NCBI GenBank assembly: GCA_050952385.1
Contig: JBMNKV010000001.1
Coordinates: 1,378,877-1,442,876, forward strand
Direction: 5' to 3'
Source of the DNA: Desulfobulbus sp.
GTDB taxonomy: Bacteria; Desulfobacterota; Desulfobulbia; Desulfobulbales; Desulfobulbaceae
DNA length: 64,000 nucleotides
How positions within the stretch are numbered: the first letter of the stretch is position 1; the number at the start of each line of letters is the position of its first letter. A program made the translations under genes and the position numbers. Below the pieces are notes generated by a model. That model ran no database searches. It saw only the letters and a list, made by a program, of their open reading frames with translations, and was not told where the DNA came from. This document shows positions 7,874-16,985 of the stretch, one piece after another.

Positions 7874-8245
7874 ATGAACGTCGGAGCCCTCTTCGATTCC
7901 ATCCTGGCAAAATGCGGTGCCCTGGCCGGAAAAATCGGCGCACTGCTGGACAGTACCGGTCTGCCGGAACAGATTCAGCAGGTTGATGCGGCCGGACTCT
8001 TTTCCAACCCCTGGTTCCTGATTCCCTTCATCGGCCTCGTCGGCTATATGCTGTACAAGAAGGCGATCCACGATCTGTTGATCATGGCCATACTCGGCAT
8101 GGTCTGGTATGCCACGGGCACGGATTACATGCAAACCCTGGTGATCGGCGACGAACTGCAACTCAACAAGGTCCTTCCGGTGATTCTGGGCGGCGTCGGC
8201 GCCCTGGCAGCCATCGTCTTCCTGCTGATGGGCCGTTCCGAATGA
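7874..8245 (+). CDS. Small integral membrane protein (about 3 TM segments), unknown family
   Basis: AGGAG lies 6 nt upstream of the ATG. Hydrophobic segments include WFLIPFIGLVGYMLY, LLIMAILGMVWYA and VLPVILGGVGALAAIVFLLM. Confidence 0.6.
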   Translation: MNVGALFDSILAKCGALAGKIGALLDSTGLPEQIQQVDAAGLFSNPWFLIPFIGLVGYMLYKKAIHDLLIMAILGMVWYATGTDYMQTLVIGDELQLNKVLPVILGGVGALAAIVFLLMGRSE

Positions 8246-8257
8246 GCTGATATCGCC

Positions 8258-9382
8258 ATGCTGCCCTTTCCCCCGAAAAATACGAACAAAAGCAGTCCGA
8301 ACGAGAACCCCTCCTTCCGGGATTCGATTTTTATCGTGCTGGAGGAAGAGGACTGTCCGCTTTACAATGTCGACGAGGAGTTCAATATTGCCGGCGGCAT
8401 CCTGACCCTGCCCGAAGGCAAGGAAACCTGCCTGACCCTCACCCGGGAGCTGATCAACCTGGCGACCGGGGAACAGAAGATGGAACACCTGTCTCCCATC
8501 GGCGCGCCCAAGGCCAAGTTCGAGTGCGGCGGCTGCGACAGCGGGGTTCTCCGGTTTGCCCATAAAAAAGACAAAACCTTCAGCACCTTGCAGATGAAGA
8601 TGCTGGCCGACGCCGAACAGCGCGCCCAGTTGCGGGAACTGGACAAGTTCCATCCCGTTCTTCGGCAGATGGAACTGTTCGAGCCGCTTTCCGACAGTAA
8701 TCTCTACGAGCTGTCCCGCCAGCTCGAGGTCAAACATTATCCGGCCAACAAGGTTATCCTCAACCAGGGCGATCCGGGCACGCGCCTGTACATCATCCTC
8801 AGCGGCCGGGTGGCGGTGGTCGGCGCCAATCACAAGGTCCTGGCCGAGATGGGCCCCGGCGACATCTTCGGCGAAATGAGCCTGCTCTCCGGAGAAAGCG
8901 TGGCCACCTCCATCTACTCACGCGATCGTTCCGTTCTCGCCACCTTGTCCAGCAAGAACTTCAAACATATCCTCGCCCGATTCCCGGTCTTGCAGGTGTA
9001 CCTCTACCGCCTGCTGGTGGAACGCTCCCAGGCCAACAGCCTGCGCGCAGGCACCATCAGCTCCGGTATGAGCGGCAGACTGGAAGAGGTCAACCCGGTC
9101 GAGTTGTTTCAAATGCTCAATTCCGGCCAGAAATCGGGAACCATCAGCCTCTCCTTTGACGACGGCAAGGCCCAGGTGATCTTTCATGAAGGTGAAGTGG
9201 TGCGGGCCGGGTATCGCAACCTGGTCGACAAAGACGCCCTGTTCGCCATCCTGGGCCGCGGCAAAGGGGAATTCACCTACACCACCGGCATCAACGAGGA
9301 AGATCAGGCCCGACCGCCGCTCGGCGGCTTCATGGCCCTGGTCATGGAGGGCATGCGCCTGATGGACGAACGCGCCGCCTGA
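8258..9382 (+). CDS. Cyclic-nucleotide-binding domain protein with C-terminal DUF4388 (PatA-N-like) domain and an unassigned roughly 120-aa N-terminal region
   Basis: cNMP-binding pattern (LFEPLSD...VILNQGDPGTRLYIILSGRV...GPGDIFGEMSLLSGE). DUF4388-like pattern (VNPVELFQMLNSGQKSGTISLSFDDGKAQVIFHEGEVVRA...GKGEFTY). The N-terminal region contains a CGGC pair. Confidence 0.8.
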   Translation: MLPFPPKNTNKSSPNENPSFRDSIFIVLEEEDCPLYNVDEEFNIAGGILTLPEGKETCLTLTRELINLATGEQKMEHLSPIGAPKAKFECGGCDSGVLRFAHKKDKTFSTLQMKMLADAEQRAQLRELDKFHPVLRQMELFEPLSDSNLYELSRQLEVKHYPANKVILNQGDPGTRLYIILSGRVAVVGANHKVLAEMGPGDIFGEMSLLSGESVATSIYSRDRSVLATLSSKNFKHILARFPVLQVYLYRLLVERSQANSLRAGTISSGMSGRLEEVNPVELFQMLNSGQKSGTISLSFDDGKAQVIFHEGEVVRAGYRNLVDKDALFAILGRGKGEFTYTTGINEEDQARPPLGGFMALVMEGMRLMDERAA

Positions 9383-9487: not shown

Positions 9488-12400
9488 GTGACCCTGCCTG
9501 TCGACCGCTCATCACGCGTTCAGACCACTCCCGCCACTCCTGCCCCCTCTGCCGGGGCGGGAGCGAGCGGTTTTGACGCGTCGCTCATTCTGGAGCAGGC
9601 AGACACCCTGCTCCGGTCGACTCACCAGTATGGTCTGTGGCGACACATTCGCCAAAAAGATGCCGCCAAATCCTTGACTATTGCCAGGCTGGTCGTGGAA
9701 CGGAACCAGCTTCTGCACAAGCTGCAACGCGACAAGTCACCGAATTGGCGTGAATTCGACCGCCTGACCCGCGAAATCCTCGGCAACGGCATCATGCTGC
9801 CCACCTCCCGCCAGCTCGCCCCTGCCAAAACATCGTCTTCCGCCCCTGTCCAGCTCGAACTCCCGTTGCTGCCGCCGCCAGCAGCGGGCCCGCCGCCGGC
9901 TGCCCCTGCCCCCTCCGCTGCCGAACCTCCATCCGCGGATATCGACAGCAATGAGGCAGCGGCCGAGCCCGACAGCACCGACGAGCCGAACGCGCCTTCC
10001 GGTCCGGCCAGGGAACTGCTCCACGAAGACAACGTGCTCATCCTCGGGGCCTCCTGTCCGCAGATCGGTCTGCGACAAGACGTTCTCGGCTACAGCGACG
10101 GTCAGCGCACCCTGCTCCCCCTGGGCGGCTTTGCCCAGGCCCTGGATTTCCCCATCGAAGTCGATCCGGCCAAGGGGACGGCCCAGGGCTGGTTCATCAG
10201 CGAGAACCGGACCATCAGCGTGGATGCGGCCCGGAAAACGATCAGGGTCGACGGCACAACCATCCCCTGGGACGACAGCCTCATTGCCGTGGGGGAAGAC
10301 GACATCTATGTCGACTCCCGCCTCTTGAGCCGCATGCTCCCCCTGGATCTGGCGACAGATCCCGGCGAAATGAGCCTGGCCCTGCACCCCCGGGAGATAC
10401 TGCCCCTGCAGGCCCAACTGGAGCGCGAACAGCGACGCAAGGGGCTTTCCATGGACCGGGAAAACATGGAACCGCGGTATCCGGTGGAAACGCCTCCCTT
10501 CAGGGCGGCCTCCTTTCCGGTCATGGATGTGAACCTGAACTCGCGGGTCAACAAATCGGCAGCCGGAAAAAGCACCCTGCACAGCTCGTATTCGGTGCTG
10601 GCCCAGGGCGATCTGGCCTACATGGGATCGAACCTGTTTGTCGCGGGCCAGGAGGACGACCCGCTGGACAACATCCGCCTGACTCTGAAGCGCACCGATC
10701 CCGGGGCGGGCCTGCTCGGCGCCATGAAGGCCCGGACGCTTGAGCTGGGCGATGTCTCGCCGGTGAGATTGCCCGTTCTCGGCACATCCTCCCGGGAACG
10801 CGGGGTGATGGTTTCCAATCAGAGCCTGCAGAATCGTCAGGATTTTGACACCACCCGGTTCGAAGGCAATGCGCAACCCGGCTGGGATGTGGAGCTCTAC
10901 CGCAACAACAGCCTGCTCCAGTCGACGCGGATTGGCGGCGACGGCCGCTACCTGTTCGAGAACATCCCGGTCTATTTTGGACCCAACCGGTTCGAAATCG
11001 TGGCCCACGGCCCCCAGGGCCAGCGCCGGGTGCTGGACACCCGCAATCTCAACATCGGCTCCGAGATGCTGAAAAAGGGCGAGATGGAATACGCCCTTTC
11101 CGCCACCCAGCGCCAGACCTCCCTGGTTGGCGAGCAACAGATCGCGCGATCCACGGGAACCGGCCCCCGGCTCAGCGGGCAGGTCGCCTATGGACTCAGC
11201 AACCGGCTGTCCGCCACGGCAGGCGCCGCATCGGTGGAGTTCGAAGGTGAACGCCACAACTACCTGCAGGCCGGGCTCAACCACAGCCTGTCGTCGCTCT
11301 ATACCAGCGCCAATGTCGTCAGCGACAGCACGGGCGGCTCCGCCCTCTCGCTCCAGGCCCAGGGCCGTGTCGGCGCGTTCAACCTCAGCGGCAAACACGA
11401 AATCTTTTCGGATTTCATCGAGGAGGCCAACCCAACCTCCACTCTGGAAGAACGCACCACCCTGGCGCTCAGCGGGCGAACGAAAAAAATCCTGGGCCTG
11501 CCGGCCCTCTCCTACAGCCTGTCGCGCAGTGAAAGCAGCAAAGCCGATGGCGGCACATCCGGGCAAACCGGCCTCCGGCTTTCGACATCGATCAAAGGGG
11601 TCCACCTCGCCAACCAGCTCTACTGGCGGGATAACCAGTCGATATCCCGGGATCAGCACGACGGTGAATTTCGGGCCAGCGGCTCTCTGGGCAGCAGCCG
11701 AATCGTCGCGGGAATAGAGTACGACATCGACGGCAGCGGCGGCATCACCCGCTACCAGCTGGACGGCAGCATGCCGCTGACCGGCGATATCCGGGCCCGG
11801 GCCAGCCTCTTTCACGACACCGAATACGGCAACAGGAAAACCGAAGGCGAGGTCGGGCTCGATTTCGATCTGGGCAAGGTCATGTTTTCGCCCAGCCTGT
11901 CCTATGACTCGGAAGGCGCATTTCGCGCCTTTGCCGGGCTCTCCTTTTCCCTGGGCAAGGACCCGACCAGCGGCGATCTGGAGATGCGTTCGGAGCGACG
12001 CTCCGGCCAGGGCGCGGCCACCGCCCTTGTCTACCACGATGCCAACAACAACCAGGTGTTCGATCAGGACGACACGCCCATTCCCGATGCCAAGGTGGTC
12101 GTCCGCCAAAGCCGACAGAACGCCCGCACCGACGAGGACGGCCGCGTCCAGTTCACCAGCCTTGCGACAAACCGGCCGGTGGATGTGGAAATCGACCCGG
12201 ACTCCCTGGCCGACCCCTTCTGGGCGCCCACCACGCCGGGCCGCTCGATCCAGCCCCGGCCCGGTGTGGTGCAGCCCCTGCTCTTTCCGGTGGTGACCAC
12301 GGGCGAGGTGGACGGCAGCCTGCTCCTGTCGCCGGGAGACGGCACCCTGGAACCGCTGATCAATGTGCGCCTGGAGCTTCGGGACGAAAACGGGGAAACC

Positions 12401-13375
12401 GTGCACACCACCCGCTCCGAATACGACGGCTTCTTCCTTTTTTCCAAGGTCCGGCCGGGCGACTATACCCTGCACATCGCAAGCACTGATCCCAAGATTC
12501 AGGCCATGGCAGAGGGATGGAGCAAGCCGGTGCACATCGGCCTGGACGGCACCATCGCCCGCGGGAACGATGTGGTGCTCTCTCCCACCATGCCGCCGCA
12601 GACCCCGCTCCCTCCCGATCCGCTCGAATCCGTTCCGGCTCCAGCGGAAAGCGAAGAACCAATCCCGGCCGAGCCCGCGCCCATCCCGGAACCGGCCCCC
12701 CCGGTCGAACCCGTTCCAGCTCCAGAGGAAAGCGAAGAACCGGTCCCGGTCAAGCCCCAGGACACGTCCGACGCGCCCATCCCGGAACCGGCCCGCCCGG
12801 TCGAACCCGGTCCGGCCGCCAAGCCAGTCGATTCCCCGGCGCCTGCCCCAGCTCCCCGGGCAGCCGCCACCTTTACCATCCACCCGCTGAGCGTGCGCGA
12901 AAACGAACCAATGCCGCAGCAGGCTACGAAACAGGCTACAGAACCGACTCCCCGTCCGGTTGCGCCGCCGGCCTCCGCGCCGGCACAGCCGGAACCCGCA
13001 TCGCGGTTTTACGCAACCCAACTGGCCTCGTACACCTCGCCGGAACAGGCACAGGCCGGTCTCCGCATCCTGGCGGGGCGGCTCAAGGGGATCGTTGTTG
13101 CTGAAGATTTCCAGATCGTCCGGGCCGACCTGGGTGAGCGGGGCATCTTTTACCGGGTCGTTTACGGAAGGCATGCCGACCGGGCCCGGGCCGAGCAGTT
13201 TACCCGCCAGGTTCGGGCGCGCGGACAGGAGGCCCTGACCCTGCCTGTGCAACCCAGCGCGCTGCTGCCAGCAGATACGGCAATCACGGCAGCACCCACG
13301 CAGCCGCTGCAGCCGACCCGCCCCGCAGCCCGGCTCATTGCCCAGAAGTATGCGGCCATGCAGGGCCGCATCTGA
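9488..13375 (+). CDS. Giant (1295 aa) usher-like outer-membrane beta-barrel protein with CarboxypepD_reg-like domains, Pro-rich repeat linker and C-terminal SPOR (peptidoglycan-binding) domain
   Basis: GTG start with GAGG upstream. There is an usher plug-like block (GNAQPGWDVELYRNNSLLQSTRIGGDGRYLFENIPVYFGPNRFEIVAHGPQGQRRVL...LKKGEMEYALS). A long run of amphipathic beta-strand-like sequence follows. The SPOR-like end is FYATQLASYTSPEQAQAGL...GIFYRVVYGRHADRARAEQF. The function call is less certain than the CDS call. Confidence 0.7.
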   Translation: MTLPVDRSSRVQTTPATPAPSAGAGASGFDASLILEQADTLLRSTHQYGLWRHIRQKDAAKSLTIARLVVERNQLLHKLQRDKSPNWREFDRLTREILGNGIMLPTSRQLAPAKTSSSAPVQLELPLLPPPAAGPPPAAPAPSAAEPPSADIDSNEAAAEPDSTDEPNAPSGPARELLHEDNVLILGASCPQIGLRQDVLGYSDGQRTLLPLGGFAQALDFPIEVDPAKGTAQGWFISENRTISVDAARKTIRVDGTTIPWDDSLIAVGEDDIYVDSRLLSRMLPLDLATDPGEMSLALHPREILPLQAQLEREQRRKGLSMDRENMEPRYPVETPPFRAASFPVMDVNLNSRVNKSAAGKSTLHSSYSVLAQGDLAYMGSNLFVAGQEDDPLDNIRLTLKRTDPGAGLLGAMKARTLELGDVSPVRLPVLGTSSRERGVMVSNQSLQNRQDFDTTRFEGNAQPGWDVELYRNNSLLQSTRIGGDGRYLFENIPVYFGPNRFEIVAHGPQGQRRVLDTRNLNIGSEMLKKGEMEYALSATQRQTSLVGEQQIARSTGTGPRLSGQVAYGLSNRLSATAGAASVEFEGERHNYLQAGLNHSLSSLYTSANVVSDSTGGSALSLQAQGRVGAFNLSGKHEIFSDFIEEANPTSTLEERTTLALSGRTKKILGLPALSYSLSRSESSKADGGTSGQTGLRLSTSIKGVHLANQLYWRDNQSISRDQHDGEFRASGSLGSSRIVAGIEYDIDGSGGITRYQLDGSMPLTGDIRARASLFHDTEYGNRKTEGEVGLDFDLGKVMFSPSLSYDSEGAFRAFAGLSFSLGKDPTSGDLEMRSERRSGQGAATALVYHDANNNQVFDQDDTPIPDAKVVVRQSRQNARTDEDGRVQFTSLATNRPVDVEIDPDSLADPFWAPTTPGRSIQPRPGVVQPLLFPVVTTGEVDGSLLLSPGDGTLEPLINVRLELRDENGETVHTTRSEYDGFFLFSKVRPGDYTLHIASTDPKIQAMAEGWSKPVHIGLDGTIARGNDVVLSPTMPPQTPLPPDPLESVPAPAESEEPIPAEPAPIPEPAPPVEPVPAPEESEEPVPVKPQDTSDAPIPEPARPVEPGPAAKPVDSPAPAPAPRAAATFTIHPLSVRENEPMPQQATKQATEPTPRPVAPPASAPAQPEPASRFYATQLASYTSPEQAQAGLRILAGRLKGIVVAEDFQIVRADLGERGIFYRVVYGRHADRARAEQFTRQVRARGQEALTLPVQPSALLPADTAITAAPTQPLQPTRPAARLIAQKYAAMQGRI
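12626..12820 (+). repeat. In-frame tandem repeat (units of 81 and 96 bp plus a partial unit) encoding the Pro/Glu-rich linker of the usher-like protein
   Basis: Repeated DNA gaa(t/c)ccgttcc(g/a)gctccag(c/a)ggaaagcgaagaacc...cccatcccggaaccggccc(c/g)cccggtc. The peptide is E(S/P)VPAP(A/E)ESEEP...PIPEPA(P/R)PVEP. Confidence 0.8.
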
Positions 13376-13614
13376 AAGGAAAAACAGGCCAGGGCCCGGG
13401 CCAAGCAGTTCACCCGCCAGGTTCAGACGCACGGACAAGAGGTCCTGCCTGGGCAACCCGGCGCGCCGCTCCCAGCAGATACGGCAATCACGGCAGCGCA
13501 CGGCAGCACCCACGCAGCCGCTGCACAGCCGACCCGGCTCATTGCCCGGAGACGCATTGCCCGGAAGCAGGCAGCCATGCAGGGCCGCATCTGAAAGGAA
13601 AAGACAGGCCAGGG
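13182..13614 (+). repeat. Tandem direct duplication (about 210 + 222 bp) of the 3' end of the usher-like gene, including its stop codon and trailing sequence
   Basis: Copy A (13182-13391) and copy B (13392-13614) both start gggcccgggcc(g/a)agcagtt(t/c)acccgccaggtt. Both end gccatgcagggccgcatctgaaaggaaaa(a/g)acaggccaggg. Confidence 0.85.
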
Positions 13615-13698
13615 AAGATGCCCGCCGCAGGCACGGCCCACCAGGCTGTTGCGAAATGCGTCACGGCAGGCTGTGCAAAAAATCTCCAACACTGTCAC

Positions 13699-13758
13699 CC
13701 CCCGCGAAGGCGGGGGCCAGTTCTTCAAAAATCACTGGATTCCCGCCTGCGCGGGAAT
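13699..13758. repeat. Two REP-like GC-rich hairpins between convergent operons (likely bidirectional terminator/insulator)
   Basis: cccccgc-gaag-gcggggg (13699-13716) and attcccgc-ctgc-gcgggaat (13739-13758). The second gives the spurious peptides IPACAGMT / SRLRGNDE seen in the ORF track. Confidence 0.5.
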
Positions 13759-13944
13759 GACGAGACACAAACCGGGGCGCCACGCCTTGCGCGGCAACAA
13801 GATCAGAAGGAGATGGTCAAGCCGGCGCAAATGGGCCGCCACACGGCCGCATCACAGAGGGCGCACAGCCCACCAAAAAAAGAAGCCGGGACCGAGCGGT
13901 CACGGCGTGGAAATCGCATAAGCGCCAGTCATCCGGCGCGATCG

Positions 13945-14538
13945 TCACGGTGGTTCGGAATACTCCAACAGAACGGGTACCAAACCGGTATAGGTATCGG
14001 ACTTGGTTCCCACGGGCAGGTCGAGCTTGCCGCCGATAGCGATGGTCACCGAGTGGGTGTCGGATCCCTCACCAGTACCCGTGGACGGAACAAGGATATC
14101 ATGCAGGGAATTGTCCTGAATATCGGTCAGGGTTATCGTGGCCGTGGGATCAATCGTGCCGGTCATGATCGCGGTATCGGGCATGGAGGCCGTAACGGCA
14201 AAGGGGCCACTTGCCGTTATGGTGACCGCGCCCACGCTGCCCCCCGCAATGGGCACCCCTTTGGCCGAAAGCGGCTGGGCCCCCGTCCCCCCCTGTCGGG
14301 CATTCATGGTAACGCTGTCACCAAGGGGGTTCAACGGGATGGTGCCCAGGCTCATCGAGGCGCTGCTCTCTTCCTCCAGGGTGTTGACCACCTGGGCGTT
14401 GATGGGCACCTCCACATCGCCGGCCAGGGCGCGGGTCACGGCCAGGAAAAGAGCGCCAAGAGCGCCGCAAGCGAGCAGCCAGCCGGCCCGTTTGCAGCAT
14501 AAAATCCTCGATACCCCCCTCCCCTGTCGCACTTCCAT
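13945..14538 (-). CDS. DUF4402-type secreted pilin-like protein (paralog of 16049..16624)
   Basis: Signal-like segment GWLLACGALGALFLAVTRALA, then GDVEVPI...LGTIPLNPLGDSVTMN...ITASGPFAVT...IAIGGKLDLPVGTKSDTYTGLVPVLLEY, colinear with the major subunit. The start is uncertain. Confidence 0.7.
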   Translation of the reverse strand: MEVRQGRGVSRILCCKRAGWLLACGALGALFLAVTRALAGDVEVPINAQVVNTLEEESSASMSLGTIPLNPLGDSVTMNARQGGTGAQPLSAKGVPIAGGSVGAVTITASGPFAVTASMPDTAIMTGTIDPTATITLTDIQDNSLHDILVPSTGTGEGSDTHSVTIAIGGKLDLPVGTKSDTYTGLVPVLLEYSEPP

Positions 14539-14622
14539 CCTCCCGTTTCGTTCTCCGCCTCCGGAGAACCGCCTTGTCACCGCAACGGCTCCAACCCACC
14601 GTCCCTGCCGGGCAGGGCCGCC

Positions 14623-15531
14623 TCAGCGGACAGGAAAGTCGCGGCTGGTGGGCTCGCCCAGGTTGACCCGCTGATTGGTGCCTGTGCTGGGCCGAAACGT
14701 GGCCCGCAGCATGCCGCCACTCAACTCCTGGCGGGAAATGTCTTTCAGATTGAGCTGAACCTTCTTTTCCTTCAGGGGCATTTGCACGGTCACGCCCGGC
14801 AGATAGCCGACCTCGCGGGAGGCCCCGGGGTCGTTGGTGGGCACATAGTGCAGGCTCAGGTTGCCGAAACCGGAACCACCGCCCTCACGGTGCAAGACCA
14901 CCTCGGCTGCCAGACCGCTGGCTGCTTTCGGGGCCGGGACGAGCCGCACCCCCACGGGCTCGACCACGCCACGGACCCCGTGCTGAATCCAGATGGGGAA
15001 ACTGGAGTTCACCAAAAGCTCAATATCCATGGACACGCTCTTGTCCCCCGCCCCCTGTTGCCGCGCCGCGGCAGCCTTGGCCGCGGAGGGCTGGGGCCGC
15101 AGGATCATCCGGGTTCTATACTCGCCGGGGGCCAGGTTGGCGGGTTTGTTCACCATGAACTTCAGCACCTGACGGCCGCCCGGGGCAATGGTGGCCCGGC
15201 GGGGCGCGTACCGGATCATCTTGCGCACCCTCTGTTCCTCGGCACTCTCCTGCTCGGGCGCAAGCTCCTGCATCCGGCCATCCGGCCCGGTGCGCAGGGT
15301 CACGGTGTCGATCCTGTACGAAATCTCCTCCTGGGTGGGATTGTACACATAGACATCCACGTTCCGCTGGCGGTCGGGAAAGATGATCTGCATGGGGGTG
15401 ATCATCAGGGTTCTGGTTTTCATGGCGGCCAGGGCGGCATCCGCCGCAAGCAGCGTGCCGAACACGGCGGCCGCACCAAGACAGGAGCCACAGACAAGAC
15501 GCAGCGAGCGTTGCACAACGGACAGGAACAT
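14623..15531 (-). CDS. PapD-like periplasmic pilus chaperone (two Ig-like domains)
   Basis: Internal ATG at 15531 with GGAG upstream. Signal peptide ...AAVFGTLLAADAALA. N-domain pattern MITPMQIIFPDRQRNVDVYVYNP...IRYAPRRATIAPGGRQVLKFMV...GEYRTRMILRPQP resembles PapD/FimC N-domains. Confidence 0.7.
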   Translation of the reverse strand: MFLSVVQRSLRLVCGSCLGAAAVFGTLLAADAALAAMKTRTLMITPMQIIFPDRQRNVDVYVYNPTQEEISYRIDTVTLRTGPDGRMQELAPEQESAEEQRVRKMIRYAPRRATIAPGGRQVLKFMVNKPANLAPGEYRTRMILRPQPSAAKAAAARQQGAGDKSVSMDIELLVNSSFPIWIQHGVRGVVEPVGVRLVPAPKAASGLAAEVVLHREGGGSGFGNLSLHYVPTNDPGASREVGYLPGVTVQMPLKEKKVQLNLKDISRQELSGGMLRATFRPSTGTNQRVNLGEPTSRDFPVR

Positions 15532-15568: not shown

Positions 15569-16042
15569 TCAGTAATCGAAATCAACCACGATCCGCACGG
15601 CGCCGCGGCAGGTGGCCGAGGATTCGCCGGGCGGAAGGACCAGACGGCCGCCGAACTGCACGGTGCGGGTCTCATTGGCCAGCAGGTCGAAACCGGTCTG
15701 GCCGTACTGGGAATGCGAGCGCATATCCACCAGGTACCGGGTGCGGCCGTTACAGTTAAGCTCGACCCGGTCCGGGTAGGTGATGCGCACATGGACCGGG
15801 TCAGCGGAGAAGACATTGATCTGGCCGCTCCCGCCGCCCCGCACCACCGAACGCCCGGCCACGGGCTGGGCCGCGCCCTTGCCGGCATCGATGACGATCG
15901 CATCGCCGACCGGGCTCAGGCCGATGCTGCCGAAATCAAGCGCACGGACCAGCGCCGCCTCCCCGGCCCCTGCCAGGGAGGCGGCTGCAAGCACAAGTGC
16001 GAGAGCGGCGATGGCTGCCCGCCCAGACCGCAACATGAGCAT
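15569..16042 (-). CDS. DUF4402-like secreted minor subunit
   Basis: Signal peptide MLMLRSGRAAIAALALVLAAASLAGA, then LDFGSIGLSPVGDAIVID...INVFSADPVHVRITYP...VQFGGRLVLP. Sits between the major subunit and the chaperone. Confidence 0.65.
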   Translation of the reverse strand: MLMLRSGRAAIAALALVLAAASLAGAGEAALVRALDFGSIGLSPVGDAIVIDAGKGAAQPVAGRSVVRGGGSGQINVFSADPVHVRITYPDRVELNCNGRTRYLVDMRSHSQYGQTGFDLLANETRTVQFGGRLVLPPGESSATCRGAVRIVVDFDY

Positions 16043-16048
16043 CAGGGC

Positions 16049-16624
16049 TCATTCATAGGTCAGGGTTGCCGTGACTGCACCTGCGTACGGACCCGCCACT
16101 GTATCCGAAGCCAATTCGAGCACGCCACCAACGTAAATGACTGCCTCAAACGTGCCATCATTATCAGCATCCGTGGCAGTAATCGCCGTGCTCCCCTGGG
16201 AGTTGGCCGTGATACCCGTCACGGTCAGCGTGTTGCCTGTGGCGTCGCCCGAGCCCTCCAGCGTTGCCTGCCCGCCGGTGCCCGCGTAGGCCGCGGTCAC
16301 TTTGAAGGGACCAGCGGCTGTCGCCGTGATGACGCCCGGGGCACTGTCGGAAATGACAACGCCTACATCCGATGACGCCTCGGCGCCAGCGCCAGTCGTG
16401 GCGTTGAGGGTGATTGTGTCGCCGAGCGGACTCAAGGGGATGGTGCCGAAGTTCAGAGTTTCGGCCTCCTCAACCAAACTCGTCTGCACGGTCACTTCAA
16501 TCGGCACATCCACATCGCCGGCCAGGGCATTCGCCGCGGGGGTCAGCACCAACCCGCAGAGTGCCGCGCCCATAACCCATTTGTTCCACATACCTTTTTT
16601 GTACTGCCGTGTTTTCATTGCCAT
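16049..16624 (-). CDS. DUF4402-type major pilin-like protein
   Basis: AGGAGG lies 8 nt upstream of the ATG at 16624. Signal peptide ...GAALCGLVLTPAANALA. Family-like blocks LNFGTIPLSPLGDTITLN, ITATAAGPFKVTAAY, YVGGVLELASDTVAGPYAGAVTATLTYE. First gene of the minus-strand operon. Confidence 0.8.
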   Translation of the reverse strand: MAMKTRQYKKGMWNKWVMGAALCGLVLTPAANALAGDVDVPIEVTVQTSLVEEAETLNFGTIPLSPLGDTITLNATTGAGAEASSDVGVVISDSAPGVITATAAGPFKVTAAYAGTGGQATLEGSGDATGNTLTVTGITANSQGSTAITATDADNDGTFEAVIYVGGVLELASDTVAGPYAGAVTATLTYE

Positions 16625-16731
16625 CCTTGGTTCCTCCTGATGTTGAGAGACTGACCCCCAATGGGTCGATACGGTAGATGACCGGGACTCTGCACAGCGC
16701 ATCCGCCCGATCCGGTTCCTGGCGGCCGGAG

Positions 16732-16985
16732 GGCGGAAAGGGATGAGCTTTTTTTGTTCCCTGTTTTCCGCTCGCCGGCTCCTGGGCAGCGCATGTGCCC
16801 AGGCTCCAGGACTCTTGTCGGCTGGAGGGCGGAAAGGGATAAGCTTTTTTTGTTTTTCCCTGTTTTTTCCGCTCTCCGGCTCCTGGGCAGCGCATGTGCC
16901 CGGGCTCCAGGACTCTTGTCGGCTGGAAGGCGGAAAGGGATAAGCTTTTTTTTGTTCCCTTTTTTTGCTCGCCGCCAGCCGGCCT
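16732..16985 (-). repeat. Non-coding tandem repeat, 2.5 copies of a 96-101 bp unit, in the leader of the major pilin gene
   Basis: Unit starts (ggcggaaaggga) are at 16732, 16828 and 16929. Each full unit carries the palindrome cctgggca-gcgcatg-tgccc(a/g)gg and homopolymer T/A runs of differing length. Confidence 0.9.

Follow-up and report, generated by a model that had tools for sequence, protein, structure and literature searches.

The 64,000-nucleotide stretch of Desulfobulbus sp. DNA studied here (the window; assembly GCA_050952385.1, contig JBMNKV010000001.1, positions 1,378,877 to 1,442,876) carries on its plus strand, between positions 9488 and 13375, a gene coding for a protein of 1295 amino acids whose predicted fold is that of the outer-membrane ushers FimD and PapC. 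The protein has no signal peptide, begins with a short peptide and a helical domain of a novel type, and ends in a SPOR domain followed by a tail. A convergent operon on the minus strand codes for a putative periplasmic chaperone and three DUF4402 subunits. A preliminary description made from the DNA letters had already pointed to an usher-like barrel combined with a C-terminal SPOR domain. The coding sequence is divided into the following parts, where NTD and CTD designate the N-terminal and C-terminal domains of ushers, and "fragment" gives the numbering of the structural model described below.

9488..9571, plus strand: disordered but conserved N-terminal peptide (residues 1-28), MTxxVxxIxxxE..., rich in Ser, Thr, Pro, Ala and Gly, no hydrophobic core
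9572..9811, plus strand: novel four-helix N-domain (residues 29-108), FDASLxxEQADxLLRQTDQYxxWxxxRQ...F(D/N)xLTxxLxxxGIxLP
9812..10039, plus strand: Pro/Ala-rich N-terminal linker (residues 109-184), of variable length and sequence among homologs
10040..10390, plus strand: Cu_amine_oxidN1/"stalk"-like domain at the usher NTD position (residues 185-301; PF07833, E 2.5e-7)
10520..10816, plus strand: predicted barrel strands 1-6 (residues 345-443; DSSP, fragment 161-259; Foldseek match to FimD/PapC)
10850..11056, plus strand: plug-like six-stranded sandwich after barrel strand 6 (residues 455-523; fragment strands 271-339)
11084..11959, plus strand: predicted barrel strands 7-24 (residues 533-824; 18 DSSP strands, fragment 349-640)
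12011..12328, plus strand: first C-terminal beta-sandwich, CarboxypepD_reg-like, at the CTD1 position (residues 842-947; PF13620; fragment 658-763)
12368..12580, plus strand: second C-terminal beta-sandwich, SdrD_B/SpaA/CarboxypepD_reg-like, at the CTD2 position (residues 961-1031; PF17210, PF17802; fragment 777-847)
12593..12985, plus strand: Pro/Ala/Glu-rich linker (residues 1036-1166; 32% Pro, 17% Ala, 12% Glu), predicted local distance difference test score (pLDDT) below 50
13001..13231, plus strand: SPOR domain, PF05036 (residues 1172-1248)
13256..13375, plus strand: C-terminal tail, IAxKYAAMQ followed by basic residues (residues 1257-1295 and stop codon)

The open reading frame (ORF) is the longest possible one at this position, is intact and is conserved among relatives. 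It starts with a GTG codon preceded by GAGG at a distance of 4 nucleotides, and an in-frame TAA is found 29 codons further upstream. The strings quoted in the preliminary description are all present in the translation, with LGDV at residue 420, GWDVELY at residue 465 and LKKGEMEYALS at residue 528. A Pfam scan of the full-length protein recognises Cu_amine_oxidN1 ("stalk") at residues 198-294 and CarboxypepD_reg/SdrD_B at residues ~856-899 and 953-1000.

The unusual N-terminus had been attributed either to a mis-called start or to non-canonical export. Each of the nine Desulfobacterota loci checked has an in-frame stop codon 3-29 codons ahead of the conserved N-terminus. Only in the window do the 29 codons between TAA and GTG include a non-conserved, mildly hydrophobic stretch, INALVLLSPV, from which ATG, GTG and TTG are all absent. 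The ORF listing of the window holds no other-frame ORF with a signal peptide that overlaps the 5' region. Upstream stops, conserved N-terminus, lack of a hydrophobic segment before the NTD in 30 homologs and lack of a signal in other frames together exclude a mis-called start: the GTG at 9488 is the true start, and of the two explanations that of non-canonical export is left.

The structure of the usher core was predicted with AlphaFold2 for residues 185-1090, residue 185 being residue 1 of the modelled fragment, from an alignment of 75 sequences. The model has a mean pLDDT of 89.3 and a predicted template modelling score of 0.76, with low values in the linkers. A Foldseek comparison to the PDB, as had been advised in the preliminary description, ranks FimD/PapC on top: the best 18 matches all belong to these two ushers (E 1.3e-28 to 2.8e-15), with alignments of up to 913 columns (750-913 columns for the FimD/PapC complexes) at 10-16% identity. 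Usher structures that comprise only the barrel (2vqi, 3ohn and 3fip) are matched with E values of 1e-17 to 3e-15. The next class, at 1e-10, is made of SdrD/TIE-type sandwiches that align to the C-terminal domains only, while generic barrels (Occ porins, LptD, TonB-dependent receptors) begin at ~2e-6.

The order of secondary structure elements, read from the DSSP string of the model, is an N-terminal alpha/beta domain (fragment residues 1-117, pLDDT 86-97), a helix, six long strands, a six-stranded sandwich, 18 strands and two further sandwiches. Long antiparallel strands, 6 + 18 in number, make up the predicted barrel. This is the plan of PapC and FimD, whose structures have an NTD, a barrel of 24 strands interrupted by a plug between strands 6 and 7, a CTD1 and a CTD2. 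The sequence that had been likened to the usher plug falls exactly at the plug insertion of the model, after barrel strand 6, and the two CarboxypepD_reg sandwiches noticed earlier occupy the positions of CTD1 and CTD2. The plug-like sandwich carries the most conserved motif of the family, PGWDVELYxN...DGRYxF...G.N...GPxGQ, whose invariant or near-invariant columns are G281-Y287, G302, Y304, F306, G324, P325 and G327.

Homology searches yield 81 proteins that exist in two forms. The 30 long forms have 1170-1528 amino acids and are 37-47% identical to the window protein, Desulfobulbus alkaliphilus being their sole named source. The ~50 short forms have about 790-1160 amino acids (most 870-1060), cover only the central two thirds of the window protein and have their NTD directly after the signal peptide. 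The long forms are one group, since even their least similar members share 35.6% identity, against at most 32.9% with any short form, and their usher parts, including the invariant plug motif, are conserved across two orders at 36-53% identity. When one genome per species is considered, relatives are found in at least 407 species, including members of Halomonas, Marinobacter, Massilia, Polaromonas, Pseudomonas, Vibrio and Micavibrio, as well as of Acidobacteriota, Fibrobacteraceae, Myxococcota, Desulfobulbales and Desulfobacterales. These proteins are named "stalk domain-containing", "carboxypeptidase-like regulatory domain-containing", "SPOR domain-containing" or "hypothetical" at their source; the word "usher" is used for none of them.

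The usher gene is followed on the opposite strand by an operon whose transcription order is subunit (~16624-16049), subunit (16042-15569), chaperone (15531-14623) and subunit (14580-13945). All four products have ordinary signal peptides.

13945..14580, minus strand: putative pilin gene of the DUF4402 subunit type, last in the convergent operon (PF14352, E 1.6e-8; subunit family)
14623..15531, minus strand: putative periplasmic chaperone of 302 amino acids from MFLSV..., with signal peptide; PapD_N-like family that adjoins the usher in nearly all loci
15569..16042, minus strand: DUF4402 subunit gene, with signal peptide (PF14352, E 6.9e-7)
16049..16624, minus strand: third DUF4402-family subunit gene, likely start MAMKTRQ..., recognised by the subunit model; the listed ORF extends to 17023

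Hidden Markov models (HMMs) built from these neighbour genes were searched against 82 usher loci. Nearly all of them link the usher to a chaperone gene and to one to three DUF4402 subunit genes. The order subunit-subunit-chaperone-usher is found in 49 of the 82 loci and nearly all others are variants of it. Most Desulfobacterota loci have the usher gene and the chaperone-subunit operon facing each other in convergent orientation. This conserved linkage, together with the confident model and its structural matches, bears out the usher-like core that had been proposed.

The chaperone family (~280 amino acids) matches PapD_N in 20 of 22 members (best E 3.1e-7). When its profile is compared with the PDB, FimC, CupB2 and PapD are the best matches, though weak, and hhalign aligns it to FimC over 155 columns with E 4.9e-4 and a probability of 32%. 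The window chaperone is 36% identical to the copy of D. alkaliphilus (L002) and 22-29% identical to the other members. DUF4402 (PF14352) is found in all 30 members of the subunit family; two window copies, with 35.7 and 30.4 bits, exceed the gathering score of 25.2. A SCPU match occurs in a single one of the 30 subunits and is non-significant (E 0.11). The third subunit has homologs in L002 and L004-L006. Literature searches returned no paper on DUF4402 or PF14352.

Several features of this neighbourhood are particular to the window or to few loci. Its operon order is subunit-subunit-chaperone-subunit, with an extra DUF4402 gene after the chaperone that is not present in most other loci. Three tandem repeats of ~100 nucleotides, 70-90% identical, lie at 16717-16974, immediately ahead of where the first DUF4402 gene probably starts, in the promoter/leader region of the minus-strand subunit-chaperone operon. 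The intergenic region between the convergent usher and last subunit genes has two GC-rich hairpins at 13690-13775, CCCCCGCGAAGGCGGGGG and TTCCCGCCTGCGCGGGAA, with no T-tract, which could be bidirectional terminators or REP-like (repetitive extragenic palindromic) elements. On the other side, directly upstream of the usher and on the same strand (7874-9382), are genes for a 123-amino-acid membrane protein and for a protein with cNMP-binding (cyclic nucleotide) and DUF4388 domains; they are kept upstream of the usher only in two close Desulfobulbus relatives (L004 and L005).

The SPOR domain at the C-terminus, as had been suspected, is a genuine member of its family. The full-length Pfam scan places it at residues 1172-1248 with 19.1 bits, below the gathering score of 21, while the isolated segment of residues 1161-1262 reaches 24.8 bits (E 2.8e-5) against the same threshold. 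All 18 homologous C-terminal domains that were aligned match SPOR (best E 1.9e-9), and their profile finds two SPOR structures in the PDB, 1x60 of CwlC at E 9.4e-5 and, more weakly, 1uta of FtsN at E 0.062. Judged from its sequence pattern, FxVxLASY...A...L...L...YRV..G.F....A..L, the domain may adopt the RNP-like (ribonucleoprotein-like) beta-alpha-beta-beta-alpha-beta SPOR fold. The Pro/Glu repeat linker described before it is likewise present at residues 1036-1166 and includes an 81-bp sequence repeated twice (12620-12785, found by Tandem Repeats Finder).

The number of SPOR domains varies among relatives, with three tandem copies in Desulfobacterales, two in a Holophagales relative and one in Salinispirillum and other short forms. 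Several short forms from Polaromonas and other Burkholderiales (P0035, P0037, P0043, P0047, P0049, P0051, P0057 and P0059 among them) have instead an AMIN domain between the signal peptide and the usher NTD, which is the position taken by the novel N-domain in the window protein. The presence of one to three SPOR domains or of AMIN in such diverse relatives shows that peptidoglycan-associated modules were recruited repeatedly by this usher family. No paper linking an usher to SPOR was found in literature searches.

The protein ends with the motif (I/V)AxKYAAMQ and 2-4 mostly basic residues, coded at 13330-13372 (residues ~1282-1295). The motif is found in 27 of 30 Desulfobulbales-type long-form ushers, including those without SPOR, and is absent from the Desulfobacterales long forms, which end in SPOR, and from all short forms. 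In the window the last ~64 usher codons, the TGA and 16 further nucleotides (13182-13391) have a tandem duplicate at 13392-13614 (81% matches). Past the TGA at 13373-13375 this duplicate continues the reading frame of the gene, remaining open for 72 codons until a TGA of its own at 13592-13594, and it too ends in ...IARKQAAMQGRI*. Readthrough of the first TGA would add a second C-terminal tail to the usher; the repeat is more likely a recent slippage duplication than a readthrough device.

Signal peptides were assessed by a Kyte-Doolittle scan of the region preceding the NTD in segments of 15 residues. The short forms have recognisable signal peptides directly before the NTD, with maxima of about 1.8-2.7 in most of them. 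The maximum of the window protein before residue 190 is 1.0 and those of all 30 long forms do not exceed 1.6, showing that the signal peptide is absent clade-wide from the Desulfobacterota long forms. The preliminary description was thus right in seeing no hydrophobic segment in the first ~190 residues; the Pro/Ala-rich character it gave to this entire region is confined to residues 109-186 (22% Pro, 21% Ala).

What precedes this linker is a module with its own sequence conservation. Residues 1-25 have pLDDT values below 50, and the extreme N-terminus is nevertheless conserved among long forms. The N-domain (residues 29-108) is also conserved, is composed of 16% Leu and 12% Arg, and is predicted to form four helices (26-42, 48-57, 59-81 and 87-99) with a core pLDDT of ~92. 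It has no consistent match in Pfam at E<=10, and its model has no match among PDB folds, where all E values are above 4. An HMM of the N-domain recognises 10 of 10 Desulfobacterota usher loci and none of the 72 others. A HMMER scan of 1.84 billion representative proteins finds it in 63 clusters only, nearly all of which are long ushers or usher fragments; in 57 clusters the N-domain and the MTxxVxxI N-terminus are conserved together at E<=1e-10. The signal peptide seems to have been lost and the N-domain gained in one event, whose outcome was retained across two orders.

The N-domain is always N-terminal, extra tandem copies in one protein (P0026) being the exception. It is also found in four shorter proteins of ~270-360 amino acids (P0105, P0131, P0132 and P0135; loci L083-L085), where it is joined to a C-terminal half with invariant Cys and His residues (DCxxF...GHTGIV). 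This half gives weak matches to CHAP/Amidase_6 and the four proteins are thus putative cell-wall hydrolases of the NlpC/P60 type. They likewise have no signal peptide, and their gene contexts revealed nothing informative. One further protein, P0091 (425 amino acids), combines the N-domain with a CTD-like CarboxypepD_reg sandwich and lacks a barrel, which may reflect a deletion or an assembly error.

The usher fold and the synteny with chaperone and DUF4402 genes are best explained by a chaperone-usher-type fibre system that lies outside the current sequence families. The window protein would be the outer-membrane usher of this deeply divergent and so far undescribed system, with a SPOR domain and an N-terminal module as additions (probability about 0.72). 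By analogy with FimD and PapC, Sec would export the DUF4402 subunits and the PapD-like chaperone, whose complexes would dock on the periplasmic NTD of the usher. The plug would then leave the 24-strand barrel, and the subunits would polymerise and thread outwards through it, aided by the two C-terminal sandwiches. By analogy with the SPOR domains of FtsN, DamX and RlpA, the long Pro-rich linker would let SPOR reach the peptidoglycan layer. SPOR domains bind glycan strands without peptides, which occur at septa and remodelling sites. The ~130-residue Pro/Ala/Glu linker and the SPOR domain most likely tether or position the assembly platform at the peptidoglycan.

Several results weigh against this explanation. 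Pfam Usher (PF00577), PapC_N and PapC_C are matched by none of the 42 family members scanned at E<=1, and hhalign of the family profile against E. coli FimD gives a probability of 2.9% (E 0.015), so that the usher assignment fails the comparison with usher profiles on which the preliminary description had made it depend. The only stretch aligned, weakly, is CTD1 of the window family to CTD1 of FimD (residues 734-794). The NCBIfam scan of the full-length protein gave no usher match and phmmer of the whole protein against PDB sequences gave only noise (UvrB at E 0.06). The assignment as usher is consequently based on fold, topology and synteny. The template modelling scores to FimD/PapC are moderate (0.42-0.58) with large root-mean-square deviations in the Foldseek alignments, and closure of the barrel and position of the plug in its lumen are read solely from the DSSP string and the Foldseek ranking. 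The chaperone copy of the window has no PapD_N match at E<=1, and the DUF4402 profile shows no detectable relation to known pilins when compared with PDB sequences and with FimA. As for export, no candidate partner is conserved around nine Desulfobacterota loci, where usher, chaperone and subunit genes are the only conserved ones; no pathway is known to us by which a barrel precursor of 1295 amino acids that lacks a hydrophobic signal would pass the inner membrane; and the 1447-amino-acid P0026 has three tandem N-domains, an arrangement commoner for a binding module than for a secretion signal.

A barrel and a SPOR domain can work only outside the cytoplasm, so that passage of the usher through the inner membrane has to be non-canonical. 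In Desulfobacterota the Sec signal peptide, which all other relatives have, is replaced by the disordered peptide, the four-helix domain and the Pro/Ala linker. We tentatively propose that this N-terminal module is the recognition element for such a route. The broader idea that it is a portable, Sec-signal-independent export or targeting signal for Desulfobacterota envelope proteins, serving ushers and the CHAP/NlpC-P60-like hydrolases alike, is doubtful; if true, it would imply a new route for a beta-barrel outer-membrane protein out of the cytoplasm. A flagellar export route was considered and found no support, the neighbourhood in the window consisting of housekeeping genes.

It is also possible, though somewhat less likely, that the N-domain is the equivalent of AMIN and binds peptidoglycan or the envelope in the periplasm, and that export depends on some other cryptic feature such as the first 28 residues. 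AMIN has the equivalent position, between signal peptide and NTD, in several short forms, and the N-domain co-occurs with SPOR and is fused to the CHAP-like putative cell-wall hydrolases. Its triplication in P0026, frequent in binding modules, favours this function, while its exclusive occurrence in signal-less proteins, which is unexpected for an ordinary periplasmic module, favours a role in export. The domain is moreover unlike any known binding domain in Pfam or in PDB folds, and a binding function would leave export to be explained.

An improbable alternative for the core is that it forms a large plugged barrel with another role, such as export of polysaccharides or of non-pilus proteins or a porin function, and that its likeness to ushers is a convergence of fold. 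The missing Pfam Usher match, the generic families matched by NTD and CTDs (Cu_amine_oxidN1, CarboxypepD_reg, SdrD_B) and the status of DUF4402 as only a putative pilin are compatible with this possibility. However, the full-length colinear fold matches FimD/PapC only, at least 18 orders of magnitude above LptD, porins and TonB-dependent receptors, the plug has the usher position behind strand 6, and the one stretch aligned by hhalign pairs CTD1 with CTD1. The gene also forms an operon with those of a PapD_N-like chaperone and of small, secreted, beta-rich proteins, arranged in the classical chaperone-usher order.

More improbable still is a long form that Desulfobacterota never export and that persists in the cytoplasm as a relic or has been given another use. 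The absence of a signal peptide or transmembrane segment and of a conserved export partner nearby would be accounted for, but not the conservation of all usher parts across the two orders, nor the retention and even multiplication of SPOR and the preserved linkage to genes for the Sec-exported chaperone and subunits. That the N-terminal anomaly is an annotation artefact, with a true start up- or downstream that yields a normal Sec signal peptide, is hardly tenable: the GTG codon and INALVLLSPV speak for it, and the absence of a start codon in that non-conserved stretch, the upstream stops of the nine loci, the N-terminus shared by 57 clusters, and the lack of a hydrophobic segment in 30 of 30 homologs and of a signal ORF in another frame speak against it.

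The system resembles FimD and PapC in its predicted fold, domain order and insertion of the plug after strand 6, and in the presence of genes for a PapD-like chaperone and subunits in the subunit-subunit-chaperone-usher order. It differs from them in that the window family has only 10-16% identity and no profile match, its NTD is related to Cu_amine_oxidN1 and its CTDs to CarboxypepD_reg/SdrD_B rather than to PapC_N and PapC_C, its subunits are DUF4402 proteins and not Fimbrial or SCPU ones, and its usher has SPOR, a novel N-domain and no cleavable Sec signal peptide. Archaic (sigma) systems, such as those for Csu pili in Acinetobacter and for spore coat protein U in Myxococcus, are divergent and widespread in environmental bacteria and have small beta-rich subunits. 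The window system is akin to them as a divergent, widespread chaperone-usher type with small beta-rich subunits. To our knowledge, archaic ushers still match Pfam Usher and their subunits are SCPU proteins; the absence of a Pfam Usher match and the DUF4402 subunits set the window system apart. An entire chaperone-usher-like fibre system, with DUF4402 subunits, a divergent PapD-like chaperone and a mislabelled usher, would go unrecognised by current profile libraries, and it occurs among others in cultivable strains of Halomonas, Marinobacter, Massilia, Pseudomonas and Vibrio.

For the N-terminal module a parallel is offered by FlgJ, a rod cap protein and peptidoglycan hydrolase that has no Sec signal and enters the periplasm by way of the flagellar type III exporter. 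It is a precedent for a protein that acts in the periplasm and bears a non-hydrophobic N-terminal module where a signal peptide would be expected, and the window N-domain is also found on the CHAP-like putative hydrolases. No sequence or fold similarity between them was detected and the usher neighbourhood has no flagellar genes; we know of no documented case of a 1295-amino-acid barrel precursor taking the flagellar type III route. Literature searches found nothing relevant on signal-less ushers, on ushers with carboxypeptidase-regulatory-like domains or on ushers in Desulfobulbus. A conserved outer-membrane barrel without signal peptide offers a concrete entry point for testing whether a non-canonical route leads through the inner membrane.

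The C-terminal domain places the usher beside the SPOR proteins FtsN, DamX, DedD, RlpA and CwlC, as it matches the SPOR profile, CwlC and FtsN. A Pro-rich linker precedes SPOR in FtsN and DamX, as in the window protein. These proteins are inner-membrane-anchored, lipoproteins or amidases and none is an outer-membrane barrel, unlike the window usher. We know of no description of peptidoglycan-associated modules on ushers. The recurrence of SPOR (up to three copies) or AMIN in the family suggests that the assembly platform is fixed to the cell wall or localised on it. The secretin PilQ, the outer-membrane channel of type IV pili, has a signal peptide and N-terminal AMIN domains that are thought to fix or localise the machine. 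Channel fold and pathway differ and the window protein has no signal peptide, but usher and PilQ have in common the combination of an outer-membrane fibre conduit with a peptidoglycan-associated module, and the short-form relatives of the usher carry AMIN itself.

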